The notes beneath the pieces are model-generated. The model searched no databases and was not told the DNA's origin. It saw only the letters and a list, made by a program, of their open reading frames with translations. A stretch of DNA of 39,394 bases, taken from IMG/VR virus record IMGVR_UViG_2541047825_000011, positions 1 through 39,394 of that record. One strand, 5' to 3'. This document shows positions 1-39,394 of the stretch, piece by piece (position 1 is the stretch's first letter; the number at the start of each line of letters is the position of its first letter). Source of the stretch: a virus (taxonomy: Duplodnaviria > Heunggongvirae > Uroviricota > Caudoviricetes). The position numbers and the translations under genes were made by a program.

Positions 1-516
1 ATGAAATTTAAAAAATGTCTTCTGCCTGTGGCAATGTTAGCGTCATTCACTCTGGCAGGATGCCAGTCAAATGCTGATGATCATGCTGCCGATGTTTATC
101 AAACCGATCAACTGAATACCAAACAAGAAACTAAAACCGTTAATATTATTTCCATTCTTCCCGCAAAAGTTGCCGTAGACAACGCCCAAAATAAACGGAA
201 CGCACAAGCCTTCGGCGCGCTTATTGGCGCTGTCGCTGGCGGTGTTATCGGCCACAACGTCGGGTCTGGCAGCAATTCCGGAACGACGGCAGGTGCAGTT
301 GGCGGCGGAGCTGTAGGCGCGGCAGCGGGTTCGATGGTGAATGATAAAACCTTAGTGGAAGGTGTTTCTTTAACATATAAGGAAGGCACCAAAGTGTATA
401 CCTCCACCCAGGTGGGTAAAGAGTGCCAGTTTACGACAGGTTTAGCCGTTGTTATTACCACGACGTATAACGAAACGCGTATTCAGCCAAATACCAAATG
501 TCCTGAAAAGAGCTAA
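1..516 (+). CDS. yfgH: Host outer-membrane lipoprotein with glycine-zipper region (YfgH-like)
   Basis: ATG at base 1, 171 aa; signal peptide ending in lipobox LAGC; Gly/Ala zipper GALIGAVAGGVIGHNVG...GGGAVGAAAG. Symbol assigned from remembered gene order yfgH-yfgI-guaA and matching protein length, not from residue-level recall. Confidence 0.55.
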   Translation: MKFKKCLLPVAMLASFTLAGCQSNADDHAADVYQTDQLNTKQETKTVNIISILPAKVAVDNAQNKRNAQAFGALIGAVAGGVIGHNVGSGSNSGTTAGAVGGGAVGAAAGSMVNDKTLVEGVSLTYKEGTKVYTSTQVGKECQFTTGLAVVITTTYNETRIQPNTKCPEKS

Positions 517-531
517 TAATCAGGAGGAGTC

Positions 532-1071
532 ATGAAGAAAGTTTTTCTTTGCGCCATCTTAGCCTCCTTAAGCTATCCGGCTATCGCCTCATCATTGCAG
601 GATCAACTCTCGGCTGTCGCAGAAGCGGAACAGCAAGGTAAAAATGAAGAGCAAAGGCAGCATGACGAATGGGTCGCGGAGCGCAACAGGGAAATCCAGC
701 AAGAGAAGCAACGTCGCGCAAACGCCCAGGCCGCGGCTAATAAAAGAGCGGCAACGGCAGCGGCGAATAAGAAAGCTCGTCAGGATAAACTGGACGCCGA
801 AGCCACTGCGGACAAAAAACGCGATCAAAGTTATGAAGATGAGCTACGCAGCTTAGAGATTCAGAAACAAAAACTGGCGCTGGCGAAAGAAGAAGCCCGC
901 GTCAAGCGCGAAAACGAATTTATCGATCAGGAACTGAAGCACAAAGCTGCGCAAACCGATGTGGTGCAATCTGAAGCTGACGCAAACAGAAATATGACTG
1001 AAGGCGGTCGCGATCTGATGAAAAGCGTGGGTAAAGCAGAAGAGAACAAATCGGACAGCTGGTTTAACTAA
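532..1071 (+). CDS. yfgI: Host secreted Lys/Glu/Ala-rich coiled-coil protein (YfgI-like)
   Basis: ATG 532 with AGGAGG just upstream; cleavable signal peptide; 179 aa; followed by an intrinsic terminator; symbol by synteny and length only. Confidence 0.5.
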   Translation: MKKVFLCAILASLSYPAIASSLQDQLSAVAEAEQQGKNEEQRQHDEWVAERNREIQQEKQRRANAQAAANKRAATAAANKKARQDKLDAEATADKKRDQSYEDELRSLEIQKQKLALAKEEARVKRENEFIDQELKHKAAQTDVVQSEADANRNMTEGGRDLMKSVGKAEENKSDSWFN

Positions 1072-1115
1072 GCGATGTCAGTAACTTCAAGCCTATGATT
1101 CGTGAGTATAAAAAA

Positions 1116-1142
1116 CCCTCTGTAGTAACAGAGGGTTTTGTT
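1116..1142 (+). terminator. Rho-independent terminator after host gene
   Basis: CCCTCTG-tagtaa-CAGAGGG 7-bp stem followed by TTTTGTT; A-tract upstream makes it potentially bidirectional. Confidence 0.7.
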
Positions 1143-1172
1143 CATTCATAGTGCAGGGTTCAAATCATTCCC

Positions 1173-1208
1173 ACTCAATTATTTACGATAACCATAACCA
1201 ATTGAGTG
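1173..1208. repeat. 9-bp inverted repeat in host/prophage junction gap (candidate attL-proximal element)
   Basis: CACTCAATT ... AATTGAGTG separated by 18 bp, in the about 150-bp gap between the host terminator and the first phage gene. Confidence 0.3.
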
Positions 1209-1289
1209 ATAACATTTTTCCAAATCTCAATTTTTCCCGTACCGTTTTATATACCGTCACCGGAAATCAGTACCATGAAAAATGCCATG

Positions 1290-6176: not shown

Positions 6177-6193
6177 ATTACCTTTCGGGTAAT
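6177..6193. promoter_or_regulatory. Operator-like palindrome ATTACC-TTTCG-GGTAAT
   Basis: Perfect 6-bp inverted arms with 5-bp spacer, 17 bp total, in the intergenic region upstream of the + strand antirepressor island. Confidence 0.6.
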
Positions 6194-8490: not shown

Positions 8491-8502
8491 GTGACATGTC
8501 AC
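8491..8502. repeat. 12-bp perfect palindrome GTGACATGTCAC (copy 1 of 3)
   Basis: Exact copies also at 25648..25659 and 27912..27923; all intergenic. Confidence 0.8.
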
Positions 8503-22724: not shown

Positions 22725-23017
22725 TCCTGTTCACTGGCCTCTTTGGCCATCTTCAAATACTGTTCAGGGCAATGCGCCATAACGCGCTGAAACAGTTCCA
22801 GCGCCAGATTGCGTTGCCCCTCATTAAATGCCATTGCCATAGCATCCATCGGAGAGATAGCGGAAAACACACGGCCTTTCTCCAGCACCGACCAGACAAC
22901 GCGACGCCCCTGTTCACTGCTCATGACAAAGCGAATGTCATCAATTTCACGCTGTGCCATGTCACGTTGCTTACGGGCGTTTTCTTCTTTCAGTTGATCG
23001 TCTTCGTAATCTGTCAT
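22721..23017 (-). CDS. Hypothetical small head-module protein
   Basis: 98 aa; overlaps the portal stop and scaffold start. Confidence 0.5.
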   Translation of the reverse strand: MTDYEDDQLKEENARKQRDMAQREIDDIRFVMSSEQGRRVVWSVLEKGRVFSAISPMDAMAMAFNEGQRNLALELFQRVMAHCPEQYLKMAKEASEQE

Positions 23018-25647: not shown

Positions 25648-25659
25648 GTGACATGTCAC
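25648..25659. repeat. 12-bp perfect palindrome GTGACATGTCAC (copy 2 of 3)
   Basis: About 75 bp beyond the terL stop, at the right edge of the tRNA island. Confidence 0.8.
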
Positions 25660-27911: not shown

Positions 27912-27923
27912 GTGACATGTCAC
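27912..27923. repeat. 12-bp perfect palindrome GTGACATGTCAC (copy 3 of 3)
   Basis: Overlaps the stop codon of gene 27920..28261, upstream of terS. Confidence 0.8.
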
Positions 27924-33650: not shown

Positions 33651-34235
33651 ATGAAAAGTATCCAGGACGTCCGCAGGCAAAATCTCAACGACTTGATCGA
33701 CCGTGAATTCAATGGTGTTCAGACGCGGATGGCTGAAAAACTTGGAACTCAGGCAAATCTGGTAAACCGCTGGGCTCTTGGCAAGAAGGTTATCGGCGAC
33801 CAGGTTGCACGAAAAATTGAAGCTGCCGCCAATAAACCCCGTAACTGGCTTGATATCGATCGCTCGCTTTCTCAGGAAGGTTTTCAGCCTGTCGGCCCAA
33901 GCGACATTGGCCAGCTGGCGGCTCACAACCTGGAACGCTGGATGAGCGAAAGCCGCGACCTTTCAACACAGGGAAAACTTCACCGCGCATCCGGCGTAGC
34001 CCAGGTGACAATCAGCCGCCTGTTAAACAATGAGGTCAGCGTTTCCATTTCCACCCTGGAGAATGTTGCATCCGCATTCGGGCGTCACGGCTATGAATTA
34101 CTGATTCACCCGCACGACCCTGCGACCATCAACTATGATCGCTCGCGCTACGCATTGTTACCCGAAACCGAGAAAGCAAAGATCGAAAGTTACATTGAAT
34201 TTGTCATCAACCAGAACGAAAAAAACAAACAATAA
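33651..34235 (+). CDS. Prophage repressor (cI-like) with two HTH motifs and no recognisable autocleavage module
   Basis: 194 aa; two XRE-type HTH segments (QTRMAEKLGTQANLVNRWALG and KLHRASGVAQVTISRLLNN); no Ala-Gly or Cys-Gly dipeptide and no S24-like C-terminal region. Confidence 0.75.
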   Translation: MKSIQDVRRQNLNDLIDREFNGVQTRMAEKLGTQANLVNRWALGKKVIGDQVARKIEAAANKPRNWLDIDRSLSQEGFQPVGPSDIGQLAAHNLERWMSESRDLSTQGKLHRASGVAQVTISRLLNNEVSVSISTLENVASAFGRHGYELLIHPHDPATINYDRSRYALLPETEKAKIESYIEFVINQNEKNKQ

Positions 34236-34257
34236 AACCATATTTTTCAGTAAGTAA

Positions 34258-34282
34258 GCCGCCTTATGGCGGCTTTTTTATT
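34258..34282 (+). terminator. Rho-independent terminator after the repressor gene
   Basis: GCCGCC-ttat-GGCGGC followed by TTTTTTATT. Confidence 0.8.
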
Positions 34283-34291
34283 GCCTATTCG

Positions 34292-34308
34292 ATTACCTAA
34301 CGGGTAAT
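34292..34308. promoter_or_regulatory. Operator-like palindrome ATTACC-TAACG-GGTAAT
   Basis: Perfect arms; upstream of the early-left promoter. Confidence 0.6.
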
Positions 34309-34326: not shown

Positions 34327-34370
34327 TTGACATCAAACCATATACGCATAATTATTACCTCAACGGTAAC
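34327..34370 (+). promoter_or_regulatory. Early-left promoter candidate (-35 TTGACA) with overlapping operator ATTACC-TCAAC-GGTAAC
   Basis: TTGACA at 34327..34332; AT-rich -10 region around 34347..34355; palindrome at 34354..34370; GAGGT RBS and ATG 34389 follow. Confidence 0.55.
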
Positions 34371-34543: not shown

Positions 34544-34843
34544 ATGAACGTTAATCAGCAGAAAAATCTTCAAAAAATCATGCTGGCATTCGACAAGGAC
34601 TACCGTCTGTCAGAACAGTTATATGACCGACAAGTTGAACTGATTGAGAGTATCCGGCTTCATCAACTGGCATCAACTTTCGACGTTGTAACAGTTAAAG
34701 GCGTTCGCCAGGAAGTACTGGAGGCCGCTAAAGACAGCCCTGAGTTCGAAGAACTAATGGATGCCTACCGGCGCGAGGCAATGGCAATTATCGCCCGCTG
34801 GGATCTGGCTGATCAGCTTGATGGGCAGAGGGACGCGGCATGA
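34544..34843 (+). CDS. Hypothetical early protein
   Basis: Track ORF 34529..34843 trimmed to ATG 34544 (GGGAGGG upstream); 100 aa, helical. Confidence 0.55.
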   Translation: MNVNQQKNLQKIMLAFDKDYRLSEQLYDRQVELIESIRLHQLASTFDVVTVKGVRQEVLEAAKDSPEFEELMDAYRREAMAIIARWDLADQLDGQRDAA

Positions 34844-35661
34844 AACCGGGAATTTATTTCGACATCAGCAACGAAGACTACCACGCCGGTGACGGCGTGA
34901 GTAAGTCGCAACTGGACATGGTTGCCAAGAATCCGGCGCTTCTTAAATGGGTTCAGGCAGCACCAGAAGACGAAGAGAAAAAGTCTGCACTGGATATGGG
35001 AACCGCATTGCACTGTCTGCTTCTGGAGCCTGGAGAGTTCGACAAACGCTTCATTGTTTCACCGAAATTCGATCGTCGGACGAAACAAGGTAAAGCTGAC
35101 GAAGAGGAATTTCTTCGTGATGTGGCGGATATGGGGATTACGGTACTTGATGCCGAGCAGTGGCGGAAACTGGAGCTGATGCGTGATAGCGCAATGGCTC
35201 ACCCGGCGGCACGCTGGATGCTGGAAGCACCTGGTTACTGCGAAGCATCAATGTACTGGAACGATGAAGAGACGGGGGAGTTGTGCCGAATTCGTCCAGA
35301 CAAATGGCTGAACGAGCACAACGTGATCGTCGACGTGAAAAAGGTTGCAGATATGGACCGTTTTGCACGCCACATCGAGGAATTCCGCTACCACGTGCAG
35401 GACGCAATGTACCGCGAAGGCGCAATGAGGGTTACTGGTCAGCCGCATGGTTTTTTCTTTCTTGCCGTGAGCGAAAGCATTGATTGTGGTCGGTATCCGG
35501 TACGCATGTTCGAGCTGGATGCGCAGGATGTCGATGCCGGGCACGCTCTGTTCCGCCGGGATCTGAATACCTATCACGAATGCCGCATCAATGATGAATG
35601 GGGCGGTGTGGAAATCATTAAACGCCCTGAGTGGGCACGCAAACAGGATATGTACATATGA
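34840..35661 (+). CDS. PD-(D/E)xK exonuclease, RecE-like
   Basis: 273 aa; N-terminal GIYFDISNEDYHAGDGVSKSQLDM; RPD...VDVKK nuclease motif; stop overlaps the RecT start. Confidence 0.75.
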   Translation: MKPGIYFDISNEDYHAGDGVSKSQLDMVAKNPALLKWVQAAPEDEEKKSALDMGTALHCLLLEPGEFDKRFIVSPKFDRRTKQGKADEEEFLRDVADMGITVLDAEQWRKLELMRDSAMAHPAARWMLEAPGYCEASMYWNDEETGELCRIRPDKWLNEHNVIVDVKKVADMDRFARHIEEFRYHVQDAMYREGAMRVTGQPHGFFFLAVSESIDCGRYPVRMFELDAQDVDAGHALFRRDLNTYHECRINDEWGGVEIIKRPEWARKQDMYI

Positions 35662-36599
35662 GCAACGACATCGCAAACATCAACGCACCAGTAGACACAG
35701 CAATCGCTGGAACTGCTGCAACTATTTTCAGCCCAGACGGCTTGAACCAACTGATGAAATTCGCCGAGGTAATGGCGCAAAGCCGCGTAACGGTACCGGC
35801 GCACCTCGCCGGGAAACCAGCTGATTGCATGGCCGTGGCAATGCAGGCTGCGCAGTGGGGAATGAACCCGTTTGCCGTGGCTCAGAAAACCCATGTTGTG
35901 AACGGCACGCTAGGTTATGAAGCCCAATTAGTAAACGCAGTTATCTCAACGATGTCGCCAACAAAAGATCGCATCAACTACGAGTGGTTCGGGCCGTGGG
36001 AACGCGTGATCGGTAAGTTTGTTGAGAAAACATCCAAAAACGGCAATCCATATATCGCACCAGGCTGGACTCTAAAAGACGAAGAAGGCTGCGGTGTTCG
36101 CGTATGGGCAACCATGAAGGGCGAGGATCAACCTCGAGTGCTTGAGTTAATGCTGTCTCAAGCACAGGTAAGAAACTCCACACTTTGGGCCAGTGATCCG
36201 AAACAACAACTCGCATACCTTGCGACAAAACGCTGGTCTCGCCTGCACTGTCCTGACGTAATCATGGGCGTCTACACCCCAGACGAATTACAGGAAACGG
36301 CACCGCGCGTTGAGCGAGACATTACTCCGCAAACGACCACTGCTGCGGGAATGAACAGTCTGATCAACGCTAAACCAGCGAAAAAGCCTGATGAGCAAAC
36401 GCGTAAATCGGACAGCCGTGATCCAGAAGAAATGCTGATGGCCTTTACCAGCGCAGCGATGAATTACAGCACTGTCTCCGAACTGGATAAGGCTTACAAA
36501 TACATTGCACAAAAACTTTCAGATGATGACGAACTGCTGGCAAAAGCCACCGACGTTTACAGCGTTCGTCGGGAAGAATTAAACGAAACATCTATGTAA
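35658..36599 (+). CDS. recT: RecT-family single-strand annealing protein
   Basis: Track ORF 35631..36599 trimmed to ATG 35658; RecT-like core ...QAAQWGMNPFAVAQKTHVVNGTLGYEAQLVNAVI...; paired with the exonuclease. Confidence 0.75.
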   Translation: MSNDIANINAPVDTAIAGTAATIFSPDGLNQLMKFAEVMAQSRVTVPAHLAGKPADCMAVAMQAAQWGMNPFAVAQKTHVVNGTLGYEAQLVNAVISTMSPTKDRINYEWFGPWERVIGKFVEKTSKNGNPYIAPGWTLKDEEGCGVRVWATMKGEDQPRVLELMLSQAQVRNSTLWASDPKQQLAYLATKRWSRLHCPDVIMGVYTPDELQETAPRVERDITPQTTTAAGMNSLINAKPAKKPDEQTRKSDSRDPEEMLMAFTSAAMNYSTVSELDKAYKYIAQKLSDDDELLAKATDVYSVRREELNETSM

Positions 36600-36648
36600 C
36601 CACCACCGCGGCGCCACGCGCGCCGCACTGCAACCAAGAGAGGTATTT

Positions 36649-36897
36649 ATGAAAGGTGCATTAGGTAAGAAGGAACTCCTGGCGGTGGTTCCACTGTCAT
36701 GGAGCACTATCGACCGTATGGAGCGCGCAGGGGAATTTCCTAAACGCTGGTATATCACCGATAAACGCTGCGCATGGAACCGTGATGAAGTTGAGCGTTG
36801 GCTTGATGAACGTCAGGCAGCAAGCCCGGCAGAGTTCCAGGGTAAAAAACCTCCTGTTCAGCAACGTGTATATCGTCCCGTGAGCAACGCGGCATGA
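36649..36897 (+). CDS. AlpA-family HTH protein (excisionase/regulator-like)
   Basis: 82 aa; KELLAVVPLSWSTIDRMERAGEFPKRWYITDKRCAWNRDEVERWL follows the AlpA-type pattern. Confidence 0.65.
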   Translation: MKGALGKKELLAVVPLSWSTIDRMERAGEFPKRWYITDKRCAWNRDEVERWLDERQAASPAEFQGKKPPVQQRVYRPVSNAA

Positions 36898-36912
36898 GTG
36901 TGCTGCTAAGGC

Positions 36913-36996
36913 ACTGGAGCAAATGGTCAGGATGGTACTTATTCCTGGCCTCTGTTTCAGCATGGCTTTATCTGCTGGCATTAATTTTCAGAGAGG
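36913..36996 (+). CDS. Possible 27-aa hydrophobic peptide
   Basis: MVRMVLIPGLCFSMALSAGINFQRGLD; weak RBS; not in ORF track; could be a small membrane peptide or noise. Confidence 0.15.
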
Positions 36997-37006
36997 GTTG
37001 GATTAA

Positions 37007-37306
37007 GTGAGAAAGTTAAGCCGACTTGAAAAATATCACATGAACAAGGTTTCAATGCGCAGTCCGTCAAAGATTGTCGCCGTTACTCCTGCGGCGATAG
37101 AGATCGAAAAACGCGCGATTGAAAGAGAGAAAAAAGGGCAGTTCCGCATTGCCGCTCACCTTTGGCTTCAGTGTATGGATGTTGCTTCTGGTGATGTTGA
37201 GCGTGCAAGGATCGCGGTTCGCAGGGACCAATGTATCACAAAAGGTAACGGCCTTCGCCGTGGCGACTATAGCGGCATAGGATGTTGTGGGGTGGTTTAT
37301 GACTAA
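37007..37306 (+). CDS. Hypothetical protein
   Basis: 99 aa; stop overlaps the methyltransferase start. Confidence 0.45.
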   Translation: MRKLSRLEKYHMNKVSMRSPSKIVAVTPAAIEIEKRAIEREKKGQFRIAAHLWLQCMDVASGDVERARIAVRRDQCITKGNGLRRGDYSGIGCCGVVYD

Positions 37307-37949
37307 GAAATACACACTAATCTATGCAGATCCACCCTGGGTATACCGGGACAAAGCCGCAGATGGTAATCGCGGTGCCGGTTTTAAATATCCGGTTATG
37401 AGTGTGCTGGATATCTGCCGCCTTCCTGTGTGGGATTTGGCCGATGAAAACTGTCTGTTGGCCATGTGGTGGGTGCCAACACAACCACTCGAAGCACTAA
37501 AAGTTGTTGAGGCCTGGGGATTCCGTCTGATGACCATGAAGGGATTCACGTGGATAAAATGTGGTAGTCGACAACCAGATAAACTGGTTATGGGTATGGG
37601 TCACATGACTCGCGCCAATAGTGAAGATTGCCTGTTTGCAGTAAAGGGAAAACTACCTACGCGCATTAATGCAGGGATCGTTCAGTCATTTACCGCACCG
37701 CGGCTTGAGCATTCAAGAAAACCAGATATCGTTCGTGAAAAACTTTTGCAATTGTTAGGCGATGTTTCTCGCATTGAACTGTTCGCCCGCCAGTCGTCTC
37801 ATGGTTTCGATGTTTGGGGTAATCAGTGCGAAGACCCGGCAGTGCAACTACACCCTGGATACGCGTTGGATATTGCCAGATTAACAAATGCATTCAGCAA
37901 TGCTCCGCTGTCACCAACAGACAACCAGGGGCGGGAGCGTGCAGCATGA
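37299..37949 (+). CDS. MT-A70 family N6-adenine DNA methyltransferase (orphan)
   Basis: Track ORF trimmed to ATG 37299; catalytic DPPW motif in YADPPWVY; no adjacent restriction endonuclease gene. Confidence 0.8.
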   Translation: MTKKYTLIYADPPWVYRDKAADGNRGAGFKYPVMSVLDICRLPVWDLADENCLLAMWWVPTQPLEALKVVEAWGFRLMTMKGFTWIKCGSRQPDKLVMGMGHMTRANSEDCLFAVKGKLPTRINAGIVQSFTAPRLEHSRKPDIVREKLLQLLGDVSRIELFARQSSHGFDVWGNQCEDPAVQLHPGYALDIARLTNAFSNAPLSPTDNQGRERAA

Positions 37950-38140
37950 ACAGGGCATCACCATCAGATTTAAGGAAATGCCTTGAAACTGCAAACATGC
38001 TTGCACACAGCGGGATCAGGTTTGTTCCAATTCCCGCTGTCACTGATGCTGAATTTGCAACACTGTCAGCAATATTCACAGATAAAATTGAATCACTGGC
38101 AGCAGAAGCCGAGATGGAAGAAAATCAGCAGAACTATTAA
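37946..38140 (+). CDS. Small hypothetical protein
   Basis: Track ORF 37826..38140 trimmed to ATG 37946 (GGGAG upstream, overlaps methyltransferase stop); 64 aa. Confidence 0.5.
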   Translation: MNRASPSDLRKCLETANMLAHSGIRFVPIPAVTDAEFATLSAIFTDKIESLAAEAEMEENQQNY

Positions 38141-38143
38141 ACG

Positions 38144-39394
38144 TTATTCCCCCGCCATCCACTTCTCAAACTTCGACGGGGAGAACGGAATCAGATCCGT
38201 ATGCTCCCCGTCAATCCATGAATCAATCATATCGGCCCACTGCTGCAACATGTAGGCGCGCTGTCTGGCGTATTCCGCTTTGTTATATACGGCGCGCACA
38301 CCTTTCTGCTCATGTGCCAGAGCCTTTTCAATCCAGTCTGAAGGATAACCAGCCTCATGCAATAACGTACTGGCTGTACGGCGCATATCATGTACGGTGA
38401 AGTCCTGAATATGCTCACCATCTTCATTTATTATTTTCACCGTTCTGTCGATCAGAGAGTTCAGCGCGGCATTAGATAATGGCTTCCGGAAGTTGTAACG
38501 ACCAGGAACCAGATATTCACTTCCACCAGCGCACATCTGCAACCCGACCAATATATCCTGTGCCTGTTTAGGCAGGTAAATAACATGCGCCCGGCTTCCC
38601 TTCATGCGGTCTGAAGGAATTGTCCATGTCCATTTTTTAAAATCTATTTCGTCCCACGTTGCATTGGTGAATTCGCCTTTACGAACCATAGTGATAAGCA
38701 CCAGCTTTAAAGCCATTTTCATAGTGCCCATAGCACCAATGGCATCCAGCGTGCGGAAGAACAGACCAATTTCTTCTGGTGTAAGTGTTCGCTCTCGTGG
38801 TTTAAATATGGCGATAGACGAAGGTTTAATGTCAGCAGCAGGATTAAACAAACCATGACCACGGTCATTGGCATGACGGTATACGCTGCTGATGATCTCC
38901 CTGGCCTGCACTGCTGTTGCCCGGCCGCCGCGTTCGACAATCCGGTCACACAAATCACGAACCATCGATGTGGTAATTTCAGCCATCATTTTGTTACCAA
39001 GAACAGGAAGTATGTCACGGTCGATCACCGCCTGCTTCATTGCGCGGGTACTGTCAGCCAGGATGACGTGTTTCATATAACTGTCGGTATGTACCGCAAA
39101 CGTCTCGGCACCACGAATCTTTTTGATACCGTCACGTTTAGCCGCAGCCGGTGACTGGCCTGCTTTAAGCAGCTTCTTTGCAGCAATCAGTTCTTCTCGC
39201 GCTTCTGCCAGGCTGATACCGTCACGCCCATACTGCCCAATTACCAGTGTTTCGCGGCGACCGTTGATACGGTAGTCATAGCGAAACGAGACCGTACCTG
39301 ACGTAAGCACAGCTACATACAGCCCGTCACGATCGGAGACCTTGTACAGTTTGTCCTGCGGCTTGAGGTTTTTTAATTTTGTATCGGTAAGCAC
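38144..39394 (-). CDS. int: Tyrosine integrase (P4-type)
   Basis: 416 aa; N-terminal TDTKLKNLKPQDKLYKVSDRDGLY arm-binding pattern; C-terminal HDMRRTASTLLHEAGY and RAVYNKAEY consistent with the R..HxxR..Y catalytic set; GTG start on the last three bases of the window. Confidence 0.9.
   Translation of the reverse strand: MLTDTKLKNLKPQDKLYKVSDRDGLYVAVLTSGTVSFRYDYRINGRRETLVIGQYGRDGISLAEAREELIAAKKLLKAGQSPAAAKRDGIKKIRGAETFAVHTDSYMKHVILADSTRAMKQAVIDRDILPVLGNKMMAEITTSMVRDLCDRIVERGGRATAVQAREIISSVYRHANDRGHGLFNPAADIKPSSIAIFKPRERTLTPEEIGLFFRTLDAIGAMGTMKMALKLVLITMVRKGEFTNATWDEIDFKKWTWTIPSDRMKGSRAHVIYLPKQAQDILVGLQMCAGGSEYLVPGRYNFRKPLSNAALNSLIDRTVKIINEDGEHIQDFTVHDMRRTASTLLHEAGYPSDWIEKALAHEQKGVRAVYNKAEYARQRAYMLQQWADMIDSWIDGEHTDLIPFSPSKFEKWMAGE

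Follow-up and report, generated by a model that had tools for sequence, protein, structure and literature searches.

An orphan MT-A70 adenine methyltransferase in a phiV10-like prophage of Escherichia coli, probably a Dam-like enzyme of phage DNA

What does a temperate phage modify when it carries an adenine methyltransferase gene without a restriction enzyme gene beside it? Such a gene lies at positions 37299-37949 (+ strand) of a 39,394-nucleotide (nt) stretch of Caudoviricetes DNA, IMG/VR record IMGVR_UViG_2541047825_000011, which was analyzed over its whole length and is called the window below. A preliminary description made from the sequence alone read the gene as an orphan MT-A70 methylase that either protects phage DNA from host restriction or alters host gene expression in the lysogen. 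Our analysis favors, with somewhat better than even confidence, a stand-alone Dam-like (GATC) DNA adenine methyltransferase that would act on replicating phage DNA early after induction or infection. The analysis itself establishes that the ORF is intact, that the catalytic motif is present, what fold the protein is predicted to take, that the methylase is an orphan, where in its operon it lies and how close its relatives are. That the substrate is DNA, that the site is GATC, when the gene is expressed and how the phage would benefit are inferred from relatives and from genomic context.

The methylase gene and the parts of its product that matter for this question are the following.

37299..37949, + strand: coding sequence of an MT-A70 family (beta-class) N6-adenine methyltransferase of 216 amino acids (aa), ortholog of phiV10 gp33 (PhiV10p33)
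37329..37340, + strand: codons of catalytic motif IV, D11-P12-P13-W14 (GAT CCA CCC TGG; GATCCACCCTGG), placed by sequence and by alignment to the DPPW of MTA1
37863..37946, + strand: variable C-terminal tail (~aa 189-216); the tails of homologs diverge past ~aa 187, and this one is unrelated to the tail of the enzyme from Shiga toxin (Stx) phages

The open reading frame (ORF) is intact, running from the ATG at 37299 to the TGA stop at 37947-37949, and its product begins MTKKYTLIYADPPWVYRDK. With a start at the in-frame GTG at 37287 the protein would have 220 aa, but the ATG is favored because all 31 homologs in our alignment begin at M-x-K-Y. The Pfam MT-A70 profile (PF05063) matched residues 5-176 over its full length (positions 1-172 of 172) with 79.5 bits and E=3.8e-22, against a curated gathering cut-off of 23.9 bits, so that the coordinates and the DPPW motif given in the preliminary description were correct. 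The PHROGs match was phrog_359 ("DNA methyltransferase", 2e-119), the best PADLOC match was a Type II methyltransferase model (MTase_II, 7.5e-77), and an NCBIfam scan of the protein returned no match. When the PDB was searched by sequence, the best matches were Tetrahymena MTA1 (E=3.6e-13, with DPPW aligned on DPPW) and METTL3 (7e-6).

An alignment of 32 sequences, the window protein included, contained 51 invariant columns, among them P12, W14, T104-R105, N107, D110, S139-x-K141-P142, E160, F162 and W173-G174, while D11 was nearly invariant. The window protein retains every one of these family-invariant residues. Loss of catalytic residues on careful alignment had been named at the outset as an observation that would speak against an active enzyme; instead, DPPW and the invariant positions are all in place. 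An AlphaFold (AF2) model built on the homolog alignment was of moderate confidence (predicted local distance difference test (pLDDT) 66.5, predicted template-modeling score (pTM) 0.67), with residues 201-216 below pLDDT 50 and hence of low confidence or disordered. Foldseek comparison of this model with the PDB placed METTL3 and MTA1 on top (probability 1.00, template-modeling (TM) score 0.55-0.62, E ~1e-10), and at this level of confidence the predicted fold is Rossmann-like and of the METTL3/MTA1 type. Judged by its sequence, the protein is probably an S-adenosylmethionine-dependent N6-adenine methyltransferase of the prokaryotic MT-A70 group (beta-class, motif IV first).

Modification or protection of phage DNA is the likeliest role of this enzyme because its experimentally tested relatives are GATC-specific DNA methyltransferases that form N6-methyladenine (m6A). 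PA8 gp5 (M.EcoPA8orf6770P), from an Stx2a phage, is 82% identical and 90% similar to the window protein over aa 1-187 without a gap; the alignment of the two ends at residue 187, and beyond it the tails are unrelated. PMC10810198 in turn states a high similarity between PA8 gp5 and M.EcoGV of E. coli O104:H4, and PA8 gp5 stands in for M.EcoGV throughout our sequence comparison. According to the account cited in PMC10810198, M.EcoGV methylates GATC in vivo when over-produced, and Table 3 of PMC6602927 lists its specificity as GATC. Among more distant homologs, that of phage HK639 is 44% identical to the window protein and p32 of Serratia phage BZS1 is 40% identical. In a Dam-minus host, BZS1 p32 renders DNA resistant to MboI and sensitive to DpnI, and control m6A-sensitive enzymes still cut the DNA that it has modified (PMC7556043). 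M.EfaBMDam of Tn1549, the founding prokaryotic member of the MT-A70 family, is likewise GATC-specific as cited in PMC7556043. The eukaryotic MT-A70 clade falls inside a radiation of prokaryotic DNA methyltransferases from restriction-modification (R-M) systems (PMC4738411). In Klebsiella phages a homolog of the methylase stands in tandem with a cytosine methylase as a DNA-modification module, which is consistent with a DNA substrate.

After induction or infection, then, the methylase would most likely act on adenine in double-stranded DNA at GATC sites of the Dam type. Rapidly replicating phage DNA could in this way be kept fully methylated independently of the limited supply of host Dam. It may thereby be shielded from methylation-sensitive restriction enzymes that cleave GATC in new hosts, and also from the consequences of hemimethylated or unmethylated GATC. 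If the enzyme is Dam-like, it would be one more case of a phage copying the GATC methylation of its host, here with an unrelated enzyme of the beta class.

Several points weigh against this interpretation. We found no experiment on the window protein or on phiV10 gp33 in the literature that was searched. The closest relative studied biochemically, PA8 gp5, showed only weak in vitro activity toward DNA, even when GATC was unmethylated, and the authors of that study make the case that the GATC methylation caused by over-produced M.EcoGV may be off-target (PMC10810198); the M.EcoGV result itself reaches us second-hand, through PMC6602927 and PMC10810198. The window contains 149 GATC sites at an observed-to-expected ratio (O/E) of 0.73, which resembles other 4-bp palindromes and is uninformative. 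Since the host has a Dam of its own, the selective benefit of a second GATC enzyme is conjectural. Finally, the promoter and operators on which the proposed timing depends are consensus matches read by analogy with epsilon15. They are listed here with the repressor gene.

33651..34235, + strand: phage repressor gene, double helix-turn-helix (HTH; HTH_3), homologous to phiV10 gp40 and to the epsilon15 gp38 repressor
34256-34275: terminator-like hairpin after the repressor gene
34293-34307 and 34355-34369, no strand: two TTACC-N5-GGTAA palindromes flanking the promoter-like site, putative repressor operators
34327..34355, + strand: sigma-70 promoter-like site TTGACA-17-AATTAT (10/12 consensus match), putative early-left promoter

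The promoter-like site is the only one of the sigma-70 type on the + strand between the repressor gene and the integrase gene, and no + strand terminator-like site was found between it and position 38140. The flanking palindromes have half-sites identical to those of the three repressor sites annotated in epsilon15 (ATTACC-N5-GGTAAT), where the same TTGACA stands between the first site and the second. These features agree with the early-left operon in which the gene had been placed. The order of genes in it would be small ORFs, recE-like, recT, alpA/xis, a membrane protein gene, perC, the methylase gene and a DUF1382 gene, which makes the methylase a probable distal gene of a repressor-controlled operon. 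Because the only upstream promoter-like site is flanked by operator half-sites of the epsilon15 type, the operon is likely to be repressed in the lysogen, and expression of the methylase is more likely on induction or infection than in the stable lysogen. The two roles proposed at the outset therefore fare differently: modification or protection of phage DNA remains the likeliest in view of the GATC-specific relatives, but it is less likely that the methylase changes how host genes are expressed in the lysogen, where the operon is probably silent.

The window holds 10 copies of the TTACC-N5-GGTAA palindrome where 0.03 would be expected, at 6178, 6558, 7706, 25005, 27820, 31238, 31300, 33581, 34293 and 34355 (15 bp each). 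The last three lie inside the immunity region and the others are scattered near other intergenic regions. This distribution suggests that the prophage repressor controls several promoters across the prophage.

Is the methylase truly without a partner endonuclease? The genes that surround it are as follows.

34840-35661, + strand: RecE-like DUF3799 exonuclease (Pfam)
35631-36599, + strand: RecT (Pfam)
36649-36897, + strand: AlpA-type regulator or excisionase (Pfam)
37007..37306, + strand: PerC-family small protein (PF06069, 30.1 bits, E=6e-7); the start annotated in phiV10 corresponds to the ATG at 37040
37946..38140, + strand: DUF1382 protein, 64 aa (PF07131, 6e-30)
38144..39394, - strand: P4-type tyrosine integrase (Arm-DNA-bind_3, Phage_integrase), convergent with the methylase operon

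No restriction-enzyme family was found among the 48 ORFs of the window with PADLOC and Pfam; the only R-M matches were two MTase_II models, and both fell on the methylase. Divergent restriction enzymes that lack a model could escape such a scan, but every neighboring ORF is accounted for, and the sole PD-(D/E)XK protein in the window is the RecE-like DUF3799 exonuclease, which is paired with RecT. As far as the window extends, the methylase is thus an orphan that lacks the nearby cognate endonuclease by which a Type II R-M system is recognized, and the first reading was right on this point. It was less exact in placing the methylase next to the integrase. The two genes are close, but the DUF1382 gene (37946-38140) stands between them and the integrase gene is convergent on the opposite strand. 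The end of perC overlaps the methylase ATG by 8 nt, the ATG of the DUF1382 gene overlaps the methylase stop by 4 nt (ATGA), and the integrase stop lies 3 nt from that of the DUF1382 gene. A DUF1382 family gene is also found downstream of the methylase in the Stx phages PA8 and PA28.

The literature on the close relatives disagrees, describing a GATC-specific DNA methyltransferase on the one hand and a partner-dependent 16S rRNA methyltransferase controlling Stx-prophage induction on the other. The latter activity, reported for a homolog that is 82% identical over its core (PMC10810198), had not been considered in the preliminary description, whose interpretation is on the whole supported in part. 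Spontaneous induction and virulence both increase with PA8 gp5, an effect that depends on DPPW; the protein co-purifies with PNB-2, the product of the upstream gene, and the M.EcoPA8orf6770P-PNB-2 holoenzyme prefers 16S rRNA and 30S subunits in vitro (PMC10810198). One possibility, which we regard as unlikely, is that the window protein is likewise the catalytic subunit of a 16S rRNA m6A methyltransferase that works with a small phage partner, perhaps the PerC-like protein, and tunes ribosome function and the frequency of induction. The shared catalytic core is consistent with this, as are the 8-nt overlap of the perC-like gene with the methylase start, the presence of the RNA enzyme METTL3 among the closest solved structures, the 75-aa winged-HTH gene directly upstream of a methylase with the window-type C-terminal tail in Enterobacter phage Tyrion, and rare in-frame PerC-methylase fusions in assemblies (P0005, 297 aa, and P0003). 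The fusions, however, amount to 3 and 2 sequences with one contig apiece and may reflect errors of assembly, and PMC10810198 does not identify the rRNA base that is modified. PNB-2 itself is absent from the window: the PerC-like protein gave no BLASTP alignment with PA8 PNB-2 at E<=100 and falls into a different Pfam family (PF06069), which rules it out as a PNB-2. According to a suggestion of the PA8 authors, PNB-2 binding requires the C-terminal tail of their enzyme, and the window methylase has an unrelated one in its place. The window thus departs from the known holoenzyme twice, in having neither PNB-2 directly upstream nor the C-terminal tail of the type found in Shiga toxin-producing E. 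coli (STEC). Moreover, different phages have different genes directly upstream of the methylase, as follows.

PA8: PNB-2
PA28: a 62-aa ORF
phiV10 type: PerC
Enterobacter phage Tyrion: the 75-aa winged-HTH gene
Klebsiella ST512-KPC3phi13.3 and ST11-VIM1phi8.1: DUF1317
Hafnia Pocitis76: DUF4060
BZS1: an ANR-family regulator
epsilon15: gp30 (35 aa)

These differences rule out a conserved upstream partner. The PA8 primer and terminator sequences, used to look for PNB genes, are lacking in PA28. In Tyrion, ST512-KPC3phi13.3 and epsilon15, one or two genes separate the methylase from a PerC gene upstream of it, and the adjacency of perC and the methylase in the window is therefore probably a recent local deletion and not an old coupling. 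It could still be speculated that a translationally coupled PerC-family protein retargets the phiV10-type methylase, as PNB-2 does with the Stx-phage enzyme toward 16S rRNA, although we hold this to be very unlikely. If it were true, the "transcriptional activators" of the PerC/Pch type would in part be specificity subunits of MT-A70 enzymes, RNA or selected DNA sites would be modified, and the rate of prophage induction would be set thereby.

Another possibility is that the enzyme modifies DNA adenine at a site other than GATC, either CATG, which would include the 12-bp palindrome GTGACATGTCAC, or a relaxed and nearly non-specific target. The protein is very small (216 aa) and has no separate target-recognition domain, and few changes can shift the specificity of small beta-class enzymes. 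The CATG-centered palindrome occurs three times against ~0.1 expected, and non-specific prophage adenine methyltransferases are known in E. coli, M.EcoGII being one (PMC5778455). We nevertheless consider a specificity other than GATC improbable: the three tested relatives, M.EcoGV, BZS1 p32 and M.EfaBMDam, are all reported as GATC-specific in the accounts given by PMC6602927, PMC10810198 and PMC7556043, and Hin1II, an m6A-sensitive control, still cut DNA exposed to BZS1 p32 (PMC7556043). M.EcoGII belongs to another group, with DPPY, a C-terminal FxGxG motif and 349 aa (PMC5778455), and an identity of this type is ruled out for a 216-aa DPPW protein that matches Pfam MT-A70 only. CATG is unremarkable in the window (154 sites, O/E 0.82), and the GTGACATGTCAC palindromes lie in intergenic regions of the late genes. 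Finally, the methylase gene could be an inactive passenger, either non-functional or in the course of decay. Decay is common among prophage accessory genes, and the PA8 homolog on its own was weakly active in vitro (PMC10810198). We regard this as extremely unlikely, since the ORF is uninterrupted and its product spans the whole Pfam profile, the family-invariant residues are all present, and 539 genomes, as well as functional, plaque-forming phages such as phiV10, ZX5 and EC.W1-9, have conserved the gene at >=95% identity. A Dam-like enzyme acting on phage DNA remains the preferred explanation.

The link between the methylase and the central CATG of the triplicated palindrome, offered earlier as a speculative one, was not sustained. 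The palindrome is real: three exact copies are present at 8491-8502, 25648-25659 and 27912-27923, together with one copy with a single mismatch at 22954-22965. All exact copies are intergenic among late or structural genes and none contains GATC, the only specificity reported for the relatives. Of the three, the one at 27912 is situated just upstream of the gene for the small terminase (terS), which is also where the single copy in EC.W1-9 is found. These positions suggest a late-operon signal for regulation or processing, transcription or packaging that would be unrelated to the methylase, and as nothing ties the palindrome to the methylase we dropped it as a target. Tetranucleotide bias was also dropped as a clue to specificity, GATC and CATG (O/E 0.73 and 0.82) both being mildly depleted like most 4-bp palindromes.

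Comparison with known systems places the window methylase close to M.EcoPA8orf6770P, with which it shares the DPPW context, the same variant of a loop at aa 88-100, a DUF1382 gene downstream and a position a few genes from the integrase. It differs in its unrelated C-terminal tail (the last ~29 aa) and in its upstream neighbor, which is PerC-like in the window and the winged-HTH PNB-2 in PA8. The phages differ as well, the window phage being a podovirus of the epsilon15 group and PA8 a lambdoid Stx phage. PhiBZS1_p32 (vB_SspM_BZS1) and the HK639 relative belong to the same Pfam family and also lie near the integration module of a temperate phage, but they are much less similar overall and carry an insertion of ~23 aa after the position of window residue 97. 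METTL3-METTL14, which forms m6A in mRNA, and Tetrahymena MTA1-MTA9-p1-p2, which forms 6mA in DNA at ApT, share the fold and the DPPW motif. In contrast to the bare 216-aa catalytic domain in the window, to which they are only 21-25% identical, these eukaryotic enzymes are obligate heteromers in which further subunits or domains bind RNA or DNA. The window methylase also resembles host-type Dam (alpha class), M.EcoVT2Dam and the non-specific M.EcoGI/M.EcoGII (beta class with DPPY), which are likewise orphan m6A methyltransferases of temperate phages that are probably silent in the lysogen, as is argued for M.EcoGII in PMC5778455, but they belong to sequence families other than MT-A70.

The surface loop at aa 88-100 (window ~37560-37598) occurs in alternative versions across the family. 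The window protein shares the version CG-SRQPDKLVMG with Stx phages and with certain sequences from Salmonella and Klebsiella; Tyrion and most other homologs have TN-KHKGNSAI-G; and the ~23-aa insertion of the HK639/BZS1 type constitutes a third. One homolog (P0073) is a chimera that combines an insertion-type loop with a C-terminal half of the window type. The loop is thus a candidate target-recognition element, and the methylase gene seems to recombine internally.

The gene is not novel. PhiV10p33 (YP_512288.1; "DNA methyltransferase / putative adenine methylase") is the same gene, and phiV10 has the same neighbors: alpA, a membrane protein gene, perC, the methylase, DUF1382 and a convergent P4-type integrase. 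The copies in phiV10 and in E. coli prophages annotated by the Prokaryotic Genome Annotation Pipeline (PGAP) differ from the window methylase by only a few amino-acid substitutions. The stretch from perC to DUF1382 (37007-38140) is present at >=95% identity in 539 of 5426 complete E. coli genomes, or about 1 in 10, where PGAP labels it [quoted passage not shown]. Homologs of the methylase form >2500 clusters, mainly in Enterobacterales; one protein cluster (P0001) is 98% identical to the window protein, and truncated copies exist as a minority. As a discovery the gene accordingly carries little weight, since the annotations of phiV10 and of ~10% of complete E. coli genomes already cover it together with its family and orphan status. 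It is of use as a natural variant that has the catalytic core of the Stx-phage enzyme but lacks PNB-2 and ends in another tail.

The window is a phiV10-like (Uetakevirus) prophage integrated beside E. coli yfgI, and the strain is a lysogen, because the first ~1.1 kb of the window consists of the E. coli core genes yfgH and yfgI, which are present in 5422 of the 5426 genomes. Over window positions 36600-38200 the DNA is 98-99.8% identical to phiV10 (98.3%), O157 typing phages 9 and 10, ZX5, EC.W1-9 and YDC107_2. A prophage Rz/DUF2514 gene follows directly after yfgH/yfgI, the chromosomal part falling within window 1-1289. The attR site lies within ~1072-1289; the window ends exactly at the integrase start codon, which leaves attL outside.

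Three further observations concern the neighbors of the methylase. PerC/Pch proteins activate the locus of enterocyte effacement (LEE) pathogenicity island in enteropathogenic and enterohemorrhagic E. coli (EPEC and EHEC), and the prophage-borne perC (37007-37306, + strand) could matter for virulence regulation. In Tyrion, gp30 (HTH_24/MarR-like, 75 aa; locus L005, 1284-1511) overlaps the methylase gene, apparently a second and independent pairing of a small winged-HTH gene with an MT-A70 gene besides PNB-2 in PA8. RecE-like and RecT are encoded in the window by separate ORFs that overlap by 31 nt, whereas phiV10 is annotated with a single RecE-RecT fusion (PhiV10p37), which may reflect either a frameshift or a difference in annotation.

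At the junction of the early-left operon with the integrase gene (38140-38144) there is no terminator-like site. Early-left transcription would therefore read antisense into int, and retro-regulation of the integrase is possible; epsilon15 has annotated RNase III sites in the equivalent region.

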